Shown here piece after piece: positions 9,882 to 17,565 of a stretch of 19,014 nucleotides of DNA. Below the pieces are notes generated by a model, which had not been told where the DNA came from, searched no databases, and saw only the letters and a program-made list of their open reading frames with translations. The stretch comes from an uncultured Deferribacteres bacterium (GTDB lineage Bacteria > Zhuqueibacterota > Zhuqueibacteria > Zhuqueibacterales > Geothermadaptataceae). A program made the position numbers and the translations under genes. The stretch's first letter is position 1; the number at the start of each line of letters is the position of its first letter. The DNA lies in NCBI GenBank assembly GCA_964014485.1, contig CAXHAT010000157.1, positions 1-19,014 of the forward strand, written 5' to 3'.

Positions 9882-11828
9882 ATGAAAAACTCATATTTTA
9901 TTCATTCAATCCGCAATGTCGCGAAAATGCTCGCGATGTTGTTTGTTTTGACGTTGGGCGTCCAAAATACGATTGCCAGACAGGATCAATGTAACCGCCC
10001 CAACCCGAATTTCTGTCCCGGCAATTTTTTACAGAACGGCGATTTTGAAACCATCACCGGTAATCCCAACCTTAGTTCGGACGTTGATGTTAATATGGCC
10101 TCGGGCTGGCTTTCTCTCTGGAATAGCCAGGTCAGTGCTGATTTGCATTGTAACGGCGGCGGCAATTCGACTGGGACAGCTCCCGTTCCCAACTCGTTCG
10201 TTTACGCCGGCATGTGGATTGAAAACAGACCAGGCACAAATACGGTAAACGCCAGTCAGCGTGAAGGCATGCAGAACAGATTGGCGACGCCGATTGCCCA
10301 AAATTCCGGTCAATACACATTAGAGTTCAACATCGCAAACGCTTTGGCGCCAGGCGGGAACAACAGTTCAAGCGTAAGCATCGGCGTCTATGGCGTTTAC
10401 AATCCTAACTCCTCTGTTGCTGTCAGACCGACCGGCGCTAACGCAAATCCGACAAATGTCAATTTATGGCAATCCGTCGATTCTTCCGTTGAAGTCGTCT
10501 TGTTAGGTACGATTACGACGCCTTCTAACTTTACCAACACATGGGTTCCACAAAGCGTCTCGTTTGACTCCGCGATTCTGCCTGACGGCGGAATCACCCA
10601 CATCATGATAACCGCGGATGACAACGCGCGTCCCGCAACTTACAGAAAAGTGTATGTGAACTTCGACGAGTTTTGTCTGCAAAGACAGCCTTGCGAATGG
10701 CTGAATAATCCGTTTACGCCGTCGATAGTTTACGGCCTCCAGGGTTCGACTTTCTCCGGAGGGGTAGATTCGTTCACGCCGCCGATTGACTGTCAAAACA
10801 TCAAGTATACCTGGACTTTTGATAATGACGGTGTCATCGAAAAATGGAACGACGGTTCCGTCAGTTTTACTTTCCCGCCGGTCAGTGGACCGTTCGGGCT
10901 CGTAAAAGATGTTTGTGTGGAAATCGCGTGCTTCGGCAGCGATACGACCGGCATGCCTTCCTGCGTCAGTCAAAAGGCCTGCGTCAACTTTCCGTTGCAT
11001 CCATGCGAATTCGAAACAGTTGATCTCGGCCCCGACACGACGGTTTGCGATACTTCCAATTTTGTTCTGGACGCCGGGCCCGGATGGCCGTCATACAAGT
11101 GGTTTGAGATTTCGGACAATACAAACGTGCTTTCCACCAGCCAGACCTACCAGCCGACTGCTCCCGACGGCGTTTATATCGTGGAAGTCAGCAATCCGGA
11201 CATCGGCAAGGCCTGCACCAAGCGCGATACGATTAAAGTTAAGGTAAAGGAATGCGATCCGTGCATCAGCAGTCTCACCTTCGACGCCCAGCCCGGCGAA
11301 TTCTGTACTATTGACTTCGCGGCCATCGCTTCCGGAATACAGATCGTTGGCTATCACTGGGATTTCGGCGACGGCGCAACGGCTGTCGGACCAAGCCCGT
11401 CGCATCAGTACGATGGCCCCGGCATTTACGCCGTGACTTTGACGGTGATTGGCGTCGATGCGGATGGAAAATGCTGCACAAGAAAGATCACTCGAAAAAT
11501 TAAGGTGGTTTGCAAGGAGTCCGGCGAATGCCTTGTTAGGCCGGATTTCTCGGTAAACAACATCATCAATCTCGAATTCCAGTTTACCAATGAAAGCGTC
11601 TCAAACAGCGTGACGACGATTGTCGGCTACCACTGGGATTTTGGGGACAACAACACTTCAACAGCGGAAAACCCGATCCATACTTACAACACTTTCGGGG
11701 TGTATCGAGTTACCCTGACCGTTTACGGTCTGGATAAAAACGGCGACTGCTGCATGGAGAAAATCTACAAATATATTAAAGCCTATCCGGCTGCGACAGG
11801 CTCAACAGTCATTGTGCCTGAAAAATAG
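9882..11828 (+). CDS. Secreted Cys-rich protein: N-terminal CBM-like jelly-roll, Ig-like segments, two C-terminal PKD domains
   Basis: Signal peptide; NFLQNGDFE...VNFDEFCL; VDLGPDTTVC...LDAGPGWPSYKW; two PKD motifs (YHWDFGDGATAVGPSPSHQYDGPGIYAVTLTV; YHWDFGDNNTSTAENPIHTYNTFGVYRVTLTV). Confidence 0.85.
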   Translation: MKNSYFIHSIRNVAKMLAMLFVLTLGVQNTIARQDQCNRPNPNFCPGNFLQNGDFETITGNPNLSSDVDVNMASGWLSLWNSQVSADLHCNGGGNSTGTAPVPNSFVYAGMWIENRPGTNTVNASQREGMQNRLATPIAQNSGQYTLEFNIANALAPGGNNSSSVSIGVYGVYNPNSSVAVRPTGANANPTNVNLWQSVDSSVEVVLLGTITTPSNFTNTWVPQSVSFDSAILPDGGITHIMITADDNARPATYRKVYVNFDEFCLQRQPCEWLNNPFTPSIVYGLQGSTFSGGVDSFTPPIDCQNIKYTWTFDNDGVIEKWNDGSVSFTFPPVSGPFGLVKDVCVEIACFGSDTTGMPSCVSQKACVNFPLHPCEFETVDLGPDTTVCDTSNFVLDAGPGWPSYKWFEISDNTNVLSTSQTYQPTAPDGVYIVEVSNPDIGKACTKRDTIKVKVKECDPCISSLTFDAQPGEFCTIDFAAIASGIQIVGYHWDFGDGATAVGPSPSHQYDGPGIYAVTLTVIGVDADGKCCTRKITRKIKVVCKESGECLVRPDFSVNNIINLEFQFTNESVSNSVTTIVGYHWDFGDNNTSTAENPIHTYNTFGVYRVTLTVYGLDKNGDCCMEKIYKYIKAYPAATGSTVIVPEK

Positions 11829-11837
11829 ATAAAACCG

Positions 11838-11872
11838 CCGCCTTCGAAATTCAATTTTGAGGGCGGCTTTTA
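11838..11872 (+). terminator. Intrinsic terminator after the PKD gene
   Basis: GCCGCCTTCGAAATT / AATTTTGAGGGCGGC stem (with G-U pairs) followed by TTTT. Confidence 0.7.
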
Positions 11873-12050
11873 CGCAGGTCGGAGCGCGGTCGTCAGGCTC
11901 TTGTTGAACGGCAATTTGACTGAATGCACAGCGTCCCGGCAGGCGCAGCGACGGAGATCGTCGCTGCATGACGACAATTCAAAATAACAGTTTATGCTTC
12001 AGGTTTTCAATGCAGCCTGAAGTGAAAATTTAATAGAGGGCAAGATAATC

Positions 12051-12551
12051 ATGGCTATAGTATGTTATACAGCGAGTGGGGAAAATCACTGGTTTTATAA
12101 AAGCGGCGGTTGAGGCGGAGTCGAGTTGGGCGGGCCCCACAACGTAACCTGCTATGAAGCGATTCCGACAGACCCGACGACTTTCCCTGACGGAAACGTC
12201 ATTGGACAAGGCGGAGGCGTCGTGCTGACCGAACTGGACAACATGACTTATGAAGCTGATCTCGAAACCGGGAACGTCTCGGTCGTCTTTCAGGGAGACG
12301 ACAGACCGAGAGTTTTCAGCGCCGTTGATTTGAACGGATTAGCCGCAGAGTACGATCTCATCGTCAGCGGCAGCGTCATCAAATACGGAATTCCCGCAAA
12401 AGTCATCAAGGGAGCAAAAAACCTGCGGTACAAAAGGGTGGCGATTTCCGTTTCATGCCTGAGCAAATGCTCAAAGAAAAAAAGGGTTCTCAAAGAGAAA
12501 AGCGTCATTATCGATCCATATAAATTCAGGACCGTGACGTTAATCGATTAG
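12051..12551 (+). CDS. Hypothetical 166-aa protein with in-frame TGA at codon 21 (candidate selenoprotein, otherwise nonsense-disrupted gene)
   Basis: AGAGGG RBS then ATG 12051; MAIVCYTASGENHWFYKSGG-TGA(12111-12113)-GGVELGGPHNVTCYEA continues in frame into the 12126..12551 ORF, which ends at TAG. Confidence 0.6.
12114..12153 (+). promoter_or_regulatory. Candidate bacterial SECIS hairpin directly 3' of the in-frame UGA
   Basis: GGCGG...GTTGGG-CGGGC-CCCACAAC...CTGCT can fold into an imperfect stem; the apical loop starts after a 17-nt spacer from the UGA and has G at its second position; folded by eye only. Confidence 0.4.
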
Positions 12552-12635
12552 ACGGACCATGACTCACGTCGAACCAATCGACAATGACAAACAACCCATA
12601 CAAAACAAACTCCCAAAATAACAAAGGATACAAAA

Positions 12636-14621
12636 ATGAAAACAATCATATATATGCTCTTCCTAAGCCTGCCGATGTGTCTTTTTGCGCAACAGCAGGC
12701 GGAAGTTTGCAGCGATACGCTCGACAACGACAACGACGGCCTCTACGATTGCGCCGATCCTGATTGCAGCGACGAAGCGGCTTGTGAAAACGCCATTCCC
12801 TGTACCAAAAACAGCGTTTTTTATCAGGTTCTGGGCGGGGACAGGTTTGTCAGTTATGATCCCGCCGCTCTGCAATACACTGACATCCATACGAATCCAT
12901 ATACAATCAACGCCATCGGCTACAATGTGCATGACGGCTTTATTTATGGAATCAAGCAGCGAACTAACGAGCTGGTCAAGGTCGGCAAGGACGGCGTTTT
13001 CGATAATCTGGGAGCCGTCGTCGATCTGCCCCCGCCCCTAAGCGGCAGGTGGTACGTCGTCGGCGATTTCGATCTGGACGGTAATCTGTACGTTTATCAT
13101 GCAAGTCTGAACTCCGTTTACCGCATAGATGTTACCGACCGCAGCGCCGCGGCCATTGCTTTAAAGGACGATATGGGCGCACTGACAAAAGTGAAAATCG
13201 CAGACTTTTCATTCTTGCCGGATACGGAAAAGCTTTACGGACTGGAAAGCGGTACGGCGAGCTTGTTCTCAATTGACCTCGCCGGAAATGTAGAAGAGTT
13301 GGGACCGCCGTCGCCGCTTTCAGGGGATGCTGACAACAATCCTGCCGGATGCAACTCAGGTTTTGGCGCTTCATTCGCGGATAACAGCGGTTCTCTTTAT
13401 TTCTTCTGTAACGCCGATGGAGACTTGTTTAAAATTGACCCTGACAACATGATTTCGGAATTGCTGCAAGCCACAGGAGACACTCTTTTCGTCAACGACG
13501 GCGCGGCGTGCGCCCTGTCAGACAGCCTGGTGATCCCGGACGGCGCGTATTGCTGCGAGGGAGAAAACCTGATCGAAAACGGCAATTTCGAGAGCGGCGA
13601 TACGGGGTTTCAGAGCGACTACAAAGCCGTGATCAAGGGCTTTGCCGTCGATCCGAGCGAGTACGCCGTCATCGATTTCAACGACGCCGATTCGGTGTGC
13701 GCTGAATGGGAAGTCGCTGACCACACCTGGTGCGTGAACGGCGGCGGCAACAATCAAATTCTCGTCGTCAACGGTCAAACGCAGCAGAGCGCCAATGTTG
13801 ACAACGTCATCTGGCAGACGGCGAAGCCGGTTCAGGTCGAGCCGGACAGCATGTACAAATTCTGTTTTTTCGCCAACCATTTGCCGCAGTGCTGCTTTGA
13901 CATTGTCCCGGAACTTTCCGTTGAAGTGCGGGACGCGGGGACGATTGCCTGGATGCCCATCGTTCCGGCCTGGACTTCCGCCGCCTACACCGGAACGGAG
14001 CCGCCGCCCTGCGATTGGGAGAAAATCAGCGGAACGTTCGAAGCGCAGACCGGCGCCGTTGAAATCAGAATTCTGCTCAACGAAACAGGCAACGGCGACG
14101 GCAATGATTTGGCCCTCGACGACATTTCGCTCACCAAAATTCCGAAAACGGAACTGAGCATCGAAGTCTCCGCCAAAATTCCTTCCAATCCCTTGCAATT
14201 GCAAGCTTCCATCAACGATATTGTCAACACCGATGACGTTCTGCCGTCGCCTGAGTGCGAATATCTCTGGGCGATTGTGGAAGTTACGGATTTGTCTCCG
14301 CTGAATCTGGATTGGGGACAAACGATGAACAACGGCTGGTACGGCGGCAGTTCCGCGGGCCACGCCTGGGGGTTGACGACGGATTTTCCGGGAATCAGCC
14401 TGCCGGGCGACAAGCTCTACCGCGTTTATCTCTGCGTCTACGACTGCGACTGCCTGGCGGAAGCGAGCGTCTTCGAAGATTCCGGCGGCGCTTTCTCACT
14501 GGACGGCGATTCGCCAAAACTCGATCTGCGCCCCCGCAAAGCAAACGCAGGAAAACCAGACGCTACAGAAGATTTTCTCAAGAAAGTCCTGGAAAGAGAG
14601 AAAAACGAAAATAAACAATAA
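12636..14621 (+). CDS. Secreted Cys/Asp-rich protein: DxDxDG metal-binding motif, DUF6923-like beta-propeller, CBM-like domain
   Basis: Signal peptide; EVCSDTLDNDNDGLYDCADPDC; INAIGYNVHDGFIYG, VGDFDLDGNLY, FGASFADNSGSLYF, NDGAAC; NLIENGNFE...GNDLALDDISL. Confidence 0.85.
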   Translation: MKTIIYMLFLSLPMCLFAQQQAEVCSDTLDNDNDGLYDCADPDCSDEAACENAIPCTKNSVFYQVLGGDRFVSYDPAALQYTDIHTNPYTINAIGYNVHDGFIYGIKQRTNELVKVGKDGVFDNLGAVVDLPPPLSGRWYVVGDFDLDGNLYVYHASLNSVYRIDVTDRSAAAIALKDDMGALTKVKIADFSFLPDTEKLYGLESGTASLFSIDLAGNVEELGPPSPLSGDADNNPAGCNSGFGASFADNSGSLYFFCNADGDLFKIDPDNMISELLQATGDTLFVNDGAACALSDSLVIPDGAYCCEGENLIENGNFESGDTGFQSDYKAVIKGFAVDPSEYAVIDFNDADSVCAEWEVADHTWCVNGGGNNQILVVNGQTQQSANVDNVIWQTAKPVQVEPDSMYKFCFFANHLPQCCFDIVPELSVEVRDAGTIAWMPIVPAWTSAAYTGTEPPPCDWEKISGTFEAQTGAVEIRILLNETGNGDGNDLALDDISLTKIPKTELSIEVSAKIPSNPLQLQASINDIVNTDDVLPSPECEYLWAIVEVTDLSPLNLDWGQTMNNGWYGGSSAGHAWGLTTDFPGISLPGDKLYRVYLCVYDCDCLAEASVFEDSGGAFSLDGDSPKLDLRPRKANAGKPDATEDFLKKVLEREKNENKQ

Positions 14622-16101: not shown

Positions 16102-16677
16102 ATGCAAAGATTCGATCCGATAAAATACCCTGACGCGGGGACGCCGCTGGCGGAAATGTACAAAATGATCGTCGAGGGCGGCGGCCAGGGCGCGGAAGAA
16201 GGCGTGCCGACAAACTATGTCACTTCGATGGGTCAGCGTCCCGATTTGCTTGGCGGCGTGATGGGCATGGCGGGCGCGATTTTTTATGAAGGCCAAATTC
16301 CGATGACCGTCAAGCAAATGATCGGCATGGCCATCGCGATTTTGCATGATTGTCGTTACTGCGCCACCGGAACGCGCCGCGCTTTGGAAGCGATGGGCGT
16401 GCCGGTCGAAGTCATCGAAAGCTGCGCCAGTGATCCGGAGTTTTCAGCGCTGCCGCCCTCTCAGCGGGCGATTTTGAAATTCGCTCTGAAAGCCGATAAA
16501 TCCGCCGCTTCTTTAACCGACGATGATTTCCAGACGATGTACGATTTTGGCTTTTCCGAGGAGGAAGTCATCGAGATTTTGATGATCGTCGCTTCCGCGC
16601 GTTTTAACGATTTTTGGGCGGACGTCAGCCAAATTTCGCTGGACGGCGAGGAAGAAGCGGTATCGGCTGCCGCGTAA
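16102..16677 (+). CDS. AhpD/carboxymuconolactone decarboxylase-like protein (CRYC), atypical active site
   Basis: RPDLL, KQMIGMAIAILHDCRYC, SQRAILKFALK, LTDDDFQ..YDFGFSEEEVIEI match the peroxidase-related AhpD family; GAGGAG RBS. Confidence 0.85.
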   Translation: MQRFDPIKYPDAGTPLAEMYKMIVEGGGQGAEEGVPTNYVTSMGQRPDLLGGVMGMAGAIFYEGQIPMTVKQMIGMAIAILHDCRYCATGTRRALEAMGVPVEVIESCASDPEFSALPPSQRAILKFALKADKSAASLTDDDFQTMYDFGFSEEEVIEILMIVASARFNDFWADVSQISLDGEEEAVSAAA

Positions 16678-16884: not shown

Positions 16885-17013
16885 TGTAAAAAACCCATGC
16901 GCGAATGCTTTTTTCGAGTACGATGGGAAATGGATTCATCAGAAACTGAACGATAATTTTGAACCGGATTGAGAGAGTGTACGAAATTTGATCTATCCAT
17001 CAAGGAGATAATC

Positions 17014-17565
17014 ATGTCCAGATTTACACAAACATTAAACCCGGACGCCAGTCAGCCGGAATTGGCCGAAATCTACGGCGAAGTTATGCAAAACGGCTTT
17101 GGCAAGAAAACGCCTTTGAACTGGTTTACCTCGATATCAAAACGTCCTGATATTTTGGCGGCGTGCTGGGGATTCGCCAAATCGATTATTTTGCAGGGAC
17201 AGGTGCCCGCGACGGTAAAACAGATGATCGCGGTAAAGATTTCGACGGCTAATCAATGCGAGTATTGTTCCGTCATCTATTCCCGTGCACTCCGAGCCAT
17301 GGGTGTGAAGCCGGAAGTGATCGATTGCGTGACCAACGATTTAAGTTTGTCAAGAGTGCCGCCGTCGCAGCGCGCCATCTTGCAATTCGCGCTCAAAGCG
17401 TCAAAACATCAGCAAAATTTGACCGACGAGGATTTTCAGGCATTGTACGATTTCGGCCTTTCTCAAGGCGAAGTCATGGAAATTCTGCTCGTCGCCGGTT
17501 ACACCAATTTTATCAACTTTTGGGCGGAGGCCAGCGGTATTCGCGTCGACGAGGCCGCGGCATGA
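17014..17565 (+). CDS. Second AhpD/CMD-like protein (CEYC), paralog of 16102..16677
   Basis: AAGGAG RBS before ATG 17014; KQMIAVKISTANQCEYC, PPSQRAILQFALKA, LTDEDFQALYDFG closely match the first copy. Confidence 0.85.
   Translation: MSRFTQTLNPDASQPELAEIYGEVMQNGFGKKTPLNWFTSISKRPDILAACWGFAKSIILQGQVPATVKQMIAVKISTANQCEYCSVIYSRALRAMGVKPEVIDCVTNDLSLSRVPPSQRAILQFALKASKHQQNLTDEDFQALYDFGLSQGEVMEILLVAGYTNFINFWAEASGIRVDEAAA

Follow-up and report, generated by a model that had tools for sequence, protein, structure and literature searches.

A TGA-interrupted reading frame as a candidate selenoprotein gene of a tiny orphan family in Zhuqueibacterota

Results

The locus and its reading frame

The DNA analyzed here, referred to as the window, is a 19,014-nucleotide (nt) stretch of contig CAXHAT010000157.1 (GenBank assembly GCA_964014485.1) from an uncultured marine bacterium of the phylum Zhuqueibacterota. 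This report concerns a reading frame at 12051-12551 that is interrupted by one TGA and that may encode a protein containing selenocysteine (Sec, U). The ATG at 12051-12053 and the TGA share one frame, which continues to a TAG stop codon at 12549-12551. Counting the TGA as read through, the open frame occupies 501 bp of an 807-bp spacer between two large genes. Translation with TGA as Sec yields a protein, P0001, that has CY motifs at residues 5-6 and 34-35 and CLSKC at residues 136-140. Using genetic code table 11, an open reading frame (ORF) for a 141-residue protein, P0002, starts at TTG 12126 in the same frame and ends at the same TAG. A preliminary description of the locus had given a read-through product identical to the 166-residue sequence with U at position 21, and its statements on the ATG, the upstream AGAGGG, the TGA, the TTG, the stop codon and the CY and CLSKC motifs were all accurate. 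The features of the locus are summarized in Table 1.

Table 1. Features of the TGA-interrupted frame and its control regions. Positions are those of the window.
Feature	Position	Strand	Remarks
Sigma-70-like match, GTGAAA-16-GATAAT	12022..12049	+	Agrees with the consensus at 9 of 12 positions
Shine-Dalgarno-like AGAGGG upstream of ATG 12051	12035..12040	+	GAGG with an 11-nt spacer, far from the optimum
Read-through frame (P0001)	12051..12551	+	166 codons + TAG, UGA at codon 21
In-frame TGA, candidate Sec codon	12111..12113	+	Opposite Cys47 of P0007
Possible full SECIS-like stem-loop	12114..12153	+	-11.3 kcal/mol in a 45-nt window, apical hairpin forced
Rival start, GGAG (12117-12120) and TTG 12126	12117..12128	+	5-nt spacer; start of 141-residue P0002
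Apical hairpin UGGG/CGGGC/CCCA	12127..12139	+	4 bp, 5-nt loop, -3.9 kcal/mol, loop 17 nt after UGA

The TGA was checked using assembled contigs from three runs of one marine-metagenome study, which were placed on positions 11850-12650. The contig from a possible source run spanned this entire interval at a depth of 6.26. The contig from a second sample covered 12062-12311 with 0 differences at a depth of 3.65 and contained the TGA, and that from a third sample covered only the part from 12428 onwards. The in-frame TGA is real and no one-off assembly error, as the contigs of two samples agree, at low depth and at the level of contigs. Among the listed runs containing the stretch, none was an RNA run.

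Selenocysteine machinery and the selenoproteome of the genome

The genome (8.4 Mb, GC 50.2%) contains the complete set of Sec genes named in the preliminary description as worth looking for. Specifically, selA (566.6 bits), selB (332.3 bits), selD (377.1 bits, with an in-frame TGA of its own) and a tRNA-Sec with anticodon TCA (68.8 bits) were all found above the curated cut-offs. A genome-wide code in which TGA is a sense codon was ruled out, as 936 of 2669 long ORFs stop at TGA. Any recoding must therefore be local.

Searches with Pfam and NCBIfam models, conducted without regard to hairpins, identified at least seven family-supported genes with an in-frame TGA: selD, three of 20 AhpC-TSA matches, the single Rdx match (1 of 1) and two of 11 CMD matches. 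Searches with the Thioredoxin and Redoxin families re-found the same genes only. A search with the molybdopterin family, aimed at a Sec-containing formate dehydrogenase, yielded nine matches, of which 0 had a stop. From a hairpin-ranked scan, 20 frames were submitted to Pfam, which recognized a domain spanning the TGA in four of them: ArsC (26.8 bits), DUF3179 (171.9 bits), OsmC (50.1 bits) and MerB (96.6 bits). The other 16 frames had no Pfam match, and one of these contains AIPGUPHC, a thioredoxin-like UxxC motif.

The organism has a sizeable selenoproteome, including SelD, three peroxiredoxin-like proteins, a Rdx/SelW-like protein and two AhpD-like (CMD) proteins. Further frames with an in-frame TGA encode ArsC-like, DUF3179, OsmC-like and MerB (alkylmercury lyase) proteins and a thioredoxin-like lipoprotein with UPHC. 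The genes lie outside the window, on contigs C68, C217, C371, C40, C214, C71, C274, C89, C18, C130, C438 and C23 of the genome (G000). The window itself carries two adjacent CMD/AhpD-like genes at 16102-16677 and 16969-17565 (family matches at 16240-16482 and 17146-17331), neither of which has an internal stop; their paralogues on C71 and C274 have the TGA in a C-x-x-U motif.

Relatives of the read-through product

An exhaustive HMMER search of 1.84 billion representative proteins yielded six proteins at E ≤ 0.001: the window's own product, four long repeat proteins and P0007, a metagenomic protein of 204 residues (source ENA) that is unnamed and itself an orphan. The repeat proteins scored better than P0007 but were taken as spurious, their alignments being split into 6-9 stretches that fall on the Gly/Thr/Val-rich middle of the query. 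P0007 was the best match in a single stretch, which runs across the TGA. Residues 4-82 of P0001 align with residues 28-104 of P0007, with 34% identity over 79 residues.

In this alignment, U21 of P0001 is opposite Cys47 of P0007, the first Cys of a C-D-C motif. The two residues face each other because HW is followed in both proteins, free of gaps, by six residues, the U or Cys, five residues and GGP. Similarly, Cys5 and Cys34 of P0001 are opposite Cys28 and Cys60 of P0007, and the HW, GGP and CY motifs each face the same motif. The shared pattern is VC[YW]T..A.G..HW, six residues, [U/C], five residues, GGP....CY, then IG.GGGVV. The alignment begins at what appears, by eye, to be the signal-peptide cleavage site of P0007 (ALA/ITVC, cleaved at the slash, opposite MAIVC). 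The alignment, which spans the UGA, has the classical signature of a Cys/Sec pair. The preliminary description had held that Gly or Trp in homologs would speak against Sec at this position; the one relative found has Cys.

The contribution of the region upstream of the UGA was evaluated using phmmer at the size of the library. The full-length protein with Cys at position 21 gave an E-value of 7.9e-4 (35.4 bits) and that with X at this position an E-value of 0.018 (31.0 bits). Residues 26-166 alone gave an E-value of 41 (20.3 bits). Thus, the relationship to P0007 is visible only when the upstream 20 codons are included. These 20 residues add 10.7 bits with the Cys uncounted, and on their own they find the collinear place in P0007 with a score of 36, which was reached by 8 of 5000 shuffles. 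Similarity upstream of the UGA, on which the preliminary description had made its proposal depend, is thus seen in the one relative. The match as a whole is of marginal significance at the scale of the database: E-values ranged from 7.9e-4 to 0.14 with Cys and from 0.018 to 1.7 with the position masked.

Other searches provided no lead to a family or a fold. Searches of Pfam, NCBIfam and PDB sequences with P0001, P0002, P0007 or their alignment returned nothing; in Pfam, there was no match at E ≤ 1 for P0002 or P0007. The ESM Atlas, queried with P0007, gave feature scores of 0.77 at most, structure matches with a template-modeling (TM) score by query of ≤0.51 and an Atlas model whose predicted local distance difference test (pLDDT) value was 0.41. 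AlphaFold2 applied to the two-row alignment of P0001 and P0007 gave a model (mean pLDDT 42.7, predicted TM score 0.38) too poor for a fold search. No paper on this protein turned up in a literature search that was aimed only at criteria for the Sec insertion sequence (SECIS) and at Sec in KSB1, the protein having no name. Any suggestion on function must come from the pattern of Cys residues, as there is no family, no usable structure model and no likeness to the neighboring proteins.

The lack of any Pfam, NCBIfam or PDB-sequence match, the poor AlphaFold model and the lack of a relative in 40 related genomes would also fit a frame that is coding-like by chance, in a spacer between two large genes for secreted proteins. 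We consider this very improbable. Over the 141 codons at 12126-12548, the codon-usage score is 0.277 per codon in frame, within the range of 0.20-0.36 for known genes, as against -0.26 to -1.70 in the other five frames. The length of the open frame relative to its spacer and the similarity to P0007 likewise argue for a gene.

The hairpin downstream of the UGA

The preliminary description had placed a CGGGC loop 17 nt downstream of the UGA, and the spacer is of exactly that length. The RNA was folded in windows of different lengths. In a 45-nt window, the unconstrained fold had an energy of -12.5 kcal/mol and the closing pair of the apical hairpin a probability of 0.20. In a 60-nt window, another fold prevailed (-21.3 versus -15.1 kcal/mol). 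A 66-nt fold proposed in the preliminary description did not stand out, its stability being no greater than that of shuffled sequences (z -0.14; 84 of 200 shuffles folded at least as well).

The hairpin was compared with those of the genome's own selenoprotein genes. The seven independent SECIS elements, i.e. those found without regard to hairpins, have perfect apical stems of 5-7 bp (-5.0 to -11.6 kcal/mol) and loops 16-24 nt from the UGA, with the sequences GGUC, UGC, GGU, GGC, GUU, CGUGCC and CGGGA. The hairpins of the five scan-derived genes have stems of 6-7 bp (-5.1 to -12.8 kcal/mol). The 17-nt spacing of the candidate is that of three of the seven independent elements, and its loop, CGGGC, is close to the CGGGA of a CMD-family gene, which lies 16 nt from its UGA.

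According to PMC13188914, the consensus bacterial SECIS has a loop of 3-9 nt, an upper stem of 4-16 bp and a G in the first two loop positions, is 16-37 nt from the UGA and has a minimum free energy of ≤-7.5 kcal/mol. As these limits were implemented here, the candidate falls formally within them, with a 5-nt loop, a 4-bp stem, a distance of 17 nt and an energy of -11.3 kcal/mol with the hairpin forced in the 45-nt window. At the stricter threshold of ≤-11.3 kcal/mol, 4.8% of true stops and 8.6% of out-of-frame TGAs passed. In a synonymous recoding test in which the peptide was fixed, 12.2% of recodings kept a hairpin as good as that of the candidate. For the 12 known genes, p ranged from 0.003 to 0.29 (median of the independent seven, 3.5%), and 5% of 60 control positions had p ≤ 0.1. 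Finally, a motif consisting of a CG[GU]G loop of 5-6 nt on a stem of ≥4 bp, 14-26 nt after the TGA, occurred at 4 of 1839 true stops, 539 of 116301 out-of-frame TGAs, 6 of 455 TGA-interrupted frames and 3 of the 12 known SECIS elements. We gave this motif little weight because it was chosen after seeing the candidate. Overall, the hairpin is compatible with Sec decoding and mildly supportive of it, and is far from proof. It is in part a by-product of the Gly-Gly-Pro codons, GGC GGG CCC, the GGP motif being conserved in P0007.

The Cys/TGA pair and the hairpin also bear on the possibility that the gene was recently broken. In that event, a Cys codon, TGT or TGC, at position 21 mutated to TGA, leaving a 20-residue fragment and perhaps a 141-residue protein restarted at TTG 12126, or a gene in decay. 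The change from TGY to TGA is one transversion, P0007 has Cys in this column and a usable restart (GGAG-5-TTG) lies 12 nt past the stop. A hairpin weaker than every SECIS in the genome would fit such a history, as would a tiny family and a copy without its relative's signal peptide, as expected of a gene on the way out. We nevertheless regard a broken gene as unlikely. There are 20 codon sites that can mutate to TGA, including the TGA itself (19 counted), and three of them are Cys columns shared with P0007. By our own arithmetic, a random TGA-creating change falls on a shared Cys column in ~15% of cases, or in fewer if transversions are rarer. In the pseudogene test, for which the intact but distant P0007 was the one homolog, no second defect was found in the 145 codons that are open after the TGA, and their codon usage is gene-like. 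Moreover, the two samples share this allele, and the hairpin stands at the distance of a SECIS, with a type of loop used by the genome's SECIS elements.

Evidence against Sec decoding, and a possible ordinary gene

A substantial number of findings weigh against Sec decoding, and many of them would be expected of an ordinary gene that encodes the 141-residue protein from TTG 12126 via its GGAG. The ATG and TGA would then belong to a 5' untranslated region, and the upstream likeness to P0007 and the hairpin would be due to chance. We consider this explanation doubtful on balance but a serious contender.

The first set of findings concerns P0007. This match, the only one found, is marginal. BLASTP aligned P0001 and P0007 with 47.4 bits, corresponding by our own arithmetic to an E-value of ~0.2 against 2.4e11 residues. 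The match was calibrated using tail fits to 60,000 shuffles of P0007, which were extrapolated. Global shuffles gave E-values of 0.003-0.006 with Cys and 0.06-0.15 with the position masked; shuffles of 15-residue blocks gave 0.007-0.14 and 0.18-1.7, respectively. These values are conservative because every database protein is treated as having the composition of P0007. We take the probability of a chance match, Cys included, to be roughly 0.001-0.1. Further, the C-terminal halves of the two proteins are without similarity (2406 of 5000 shuffles as good). P0007 is apparently secreted and P0001 has no signal peptide, nor was any remnant of one found upstream in three frames. An ordinary gene leaves other aspects of the match to coincidence: the two proteins agree on rare residues (three Cys, H, W and Y), free of gaps around the U; the upstream residues score as described above; the alignment starts at the apparent mature N-terminus of P0007; and the 141-residue protein without the extension has no detectable relative.

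Similarly, no further relative was found. Six-frame searches of 40 related genomes returned only the window's own 141-residue product, with no Cys- or TGA-bearing relative. Among 167 genomes from the phylum, the locus itself and one noise-level match (17.6 bits, 3 stops) were recovered. Two contig collections, queried with the protein and then with the two-row alignment, yielded the window's own product only. In word-index searches, P0001 again returned its own 141-residue product and no further relative emerged, P0007 being an orphan. A second TGA-bearing relative was found neither in the 40 related genomes, nor in the 167 genomes of the phylum, nor in the two contig collections.

With respect to the hairpin, none of the 13 compared is weaker than that of the candidate, which has 4 bp and an energy of -3.9 kcal/mol; the other 12, the SECIS elements of the genome, have stems of 5-8 bp and energies of -5.0 to -12.8 kcal/mol. 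A hairpin of ≤-4.0 kcal/mol is found downstream of 7.3% of true TGA stops (n = 927) and of 10.0% of out-of-frame TGAs (n = 2589). When the consensus limits as implemented here were applied to 500 TGAs of each kind, 12.2% of the true stops and 27.2% of the out-of-frame TGAs passed. The Gly-Gly-Pro codons that help to form the hairpin are accounted for by an ordinary gene as well. Finally, the U is flanked by Gly (GGUGG) and has no Cys within a few residues.

The bare configuration of a TGA-interrupted frame and a hairpin is common in this genome. We scanned the entire genome for frames in which a start codon and a minimum of 5 codons precede a TGA, at least 25 further codons stay open after it and codon usage is gene-like. 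This yielded 455 frames, of which 44 had a hairpin at least as good as that of the candidate (≤-3.9 kcal/mol, 14-26 nt from the TGA, G in the first two loop positions). Only seven of the 44 have family or motif support. Two short TGA-interrupted frames on the minus strand, G000:C207:7119-7361 and G000:C38:20512-20751, have strong hairpins (-11.7 and -9.0 kcal/mol, respectively) with GGGC loops that follow the TGA at 17 and 23 nt. They have no Pfam match and their peptides look low in complexity; they could be additional orphan candidates or frames that arose by chance.

With regard to starts, this genome uses Shine-Dalgarno sites. GGAG occurs 118, 127 and 113 times with spacers of 6, 7 and 8 nt, 58 times at 5 nt, 34 times at 11 nt and 17 times each at 3 and 4 nt. 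For GAGG, the peak is 90 at 7 nt and the count at 11 nt is 15. The GGAG of TTG 12126 is thus better placed than the GAGG of ATG 12051, and it is the 141-residue product that database gene callers report. The 20-codon extension has an uninformative codon score of 0.016 per codon, and codon usage does not discriminate here: the density was 0.24 for true N-termini and 0.21 for upstream non-coding sequence. The sigma-70-like site, a weak match, would, if real, place the 5' end of the transcript near ATG 12051 or slightly past it. The region contains three such sites versus 1.1 ± 1.1 in shuffles, which is no evidence of function. The points on start site, promoter and codon usage lean slightly to the TTG start and decide nothing.

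Neighboring genes and the intergenic region

The frame is flanked by a gene at 9882-11828 whose product has PKD domains and one at 12636-14621 whose product has DUF6923. P0001 resembles neither product (best E-values 24 and 1.3). The preliminary description had called the neighbors Cys-rich secreted proteins. They are Cys-rich, with 22 Cys in 648 residues and 21 in 661; as to secretion, their hydrophobic N-termini look signal-like by eye. Directly after its signal-like N-terminus, the DUF6923 protein matches the "acidic double-disulfide repeat" model NF033662 with 37.6 bits, which is below the cut-off of 41 bits.

Directly past the stop codon of the PKD-domain gene, at 11837-11867, there is a 15-nt inverted repeat with 87% complementarity between its arms and a TTTT after it. 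It looks like the terminator of that gene, which would make the candidate gene its own transcription unit; the consensus scan did not call it. The spacer upstream of ATG 12051 also contains two perfect inverted repeats, at 11945-11967 and 11997-12022, one with 9-bp arms and a 5-nt loop and the other with 7-bp arms and a 12-nt loop. These could be regulatory or leader structures. An Rfam scan of the window gave 0 matches and a tRNA search of the window found none.

Discussion

The reading that we favor, at a probability that we put just short of even, is that P0001 is a true selenoprotein of a tiny orphan family; it stands as a candidate only. Under this reading, 12051-12551 would be one gene for a 166-residue protein without a signal peptide, in which UGA codon 21 is read as Sec. 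When the UGA reaches the A site of the ribosome, SelB in complex with Sec-tRNA(Sec) would bind the minimal stem-loop directly downstream, presenting the CGGGC loop of the apical hairpin at 17 nt, and would deliver Sec in place of termination by release factor 2. Sec would replace the first Cys of the C-x-C pair found in P0007. Given this position and the conservation of Cys5 and Cys34 with P0007, P0001 would probably have a selenol/thiol redox center, with a selenylsulfide to Cys5 or Cys34, by analogy with the way bacterial selenoproteins generally work. A more specific version, to which we lean rather less, is that the selenoprotein is newly born: it would descend from the Cys-rich N-terminal domain of a family of secreted proteins, as an orphan copy without a leader in which one Cys of the C-x-C pair changed to Sec and a minimal 4-bp SECIS arose largely from conserved Gly-Gly-Pro codons.

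The candidate can be compared with three known systems. The first is the AhpD-like (CMD, PF02627) gene at G000:C274:7670-7840, whose CGGGA loop is 16 nt from the UGA, as compared with CGGGC at 17 nt; as both genes occur in one organism, they would use the same SelB. The stem of the AhpD-like gene is longer (5 bp, -6.7 kcal/mol, versus 4 bp, -3.9 kcal/mol). Its Sec belongs to a C-x-x-U motif and its TGA lies within a Pfam CMD match (33.7 bits), whereas the candidate has no family and no nearby Cys. The second is P0007, which has an apparent N-terminal signal peptide and C-x-C where P0001 has no signal peptide and U-G-G, and whose C-terminal half is unrelated. The third is the fdhF-type SECIS of Escherichia coli. 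In both, the hairpin is part of the coding sequence, directly follows the UGA on its 3' side and presents a small, G-rich loop at a comparable distance. The E. coli element, however, has a longer stem in which a U is bulged, and its loop is GGUC, whereas the four pairs of the candidate are contiguous and its loop contains no U.

Compared with the products of published screens for Cys/Sec pairs (PMC1088965, PMC12013277), P0001 is alike in its TGA/Cys alignment, a downstream stem-loop with a small, G-bearing loop, a host with Sec machinery and the lack of a known function. It differs in the number of sequences. As set out in PMC1088965, the Sargasso Sea screen kept a TGA-containing ORF only with at least 2 Cys homologs and TGA/Cys pairs in >50% of them. 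For a family to count as "new", 2 or more different TGA sequences were needed, single ones staying "candidates". Here, there is one Cys homolog, the marginal P0007, and one TGA sequence. P0001 is at most a candidate by that standard. According to PMC12013277, some of the "hypothetical protein" selenoproteins newly called by deep-Sep are also without TGA homologs, and in the test genomes of the deep-Sep authors at least 40 known genes (13.0%) escaped bSECISearch. Neither shortfall is thus disqualifying.

We weighed these alternatives starting from the 37 hairpin-bearing frames without family or motif support, of which a few per cent were assumed to be real novel selenoproteins and ~2% to be TGA pseudogenes. 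The likelihood of the result with P0007 was assumed to be ~0.24 for a true selenoprotein, ~0.02-0.03 for a random change of Cys to stop and 0.001-0.1 for chance; the second value takes account of the three shared Cys columns among the 20 TGA-mutable codon sites. The priors are our own estimates and not computed results. With these values, a true selenoprotein has a posterior of between ~0.1 and 0.9, with its center close to one half. The proposal in the preliminary description of a selenoprotein of an unrecognized family fares in keeping with this: where the checks that it suggested were run, none turned up the contrary result that it had named, while the support amounts to one marginal relative and a weak hairpin, with no second TGA sequence.

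With more than 100 selenoprotein families already described, according to PMC12013277, one more candidate without a known function is only moderately interesting in itself. If Sec decoding does not occur here, the locus teaches caution, as a Cys/TGA pair from a single hit together with a hairpin that passes the consensus can arise among ~450 similar frames. If P0001 is a selenoprotein, it would represent a family without a known domain and with an unusual, Gly-flanked Sec in a little-studied phylum. It would also indicate that a SECIS with four apical base pairs can work, which bears on the thresholds of prediction tools. Finally, if the selenoprotein is indeed newly born, existing peptide motifs can supply a SelB-binding hairpin, which would lower the barrier to the change from Cys to Sec.

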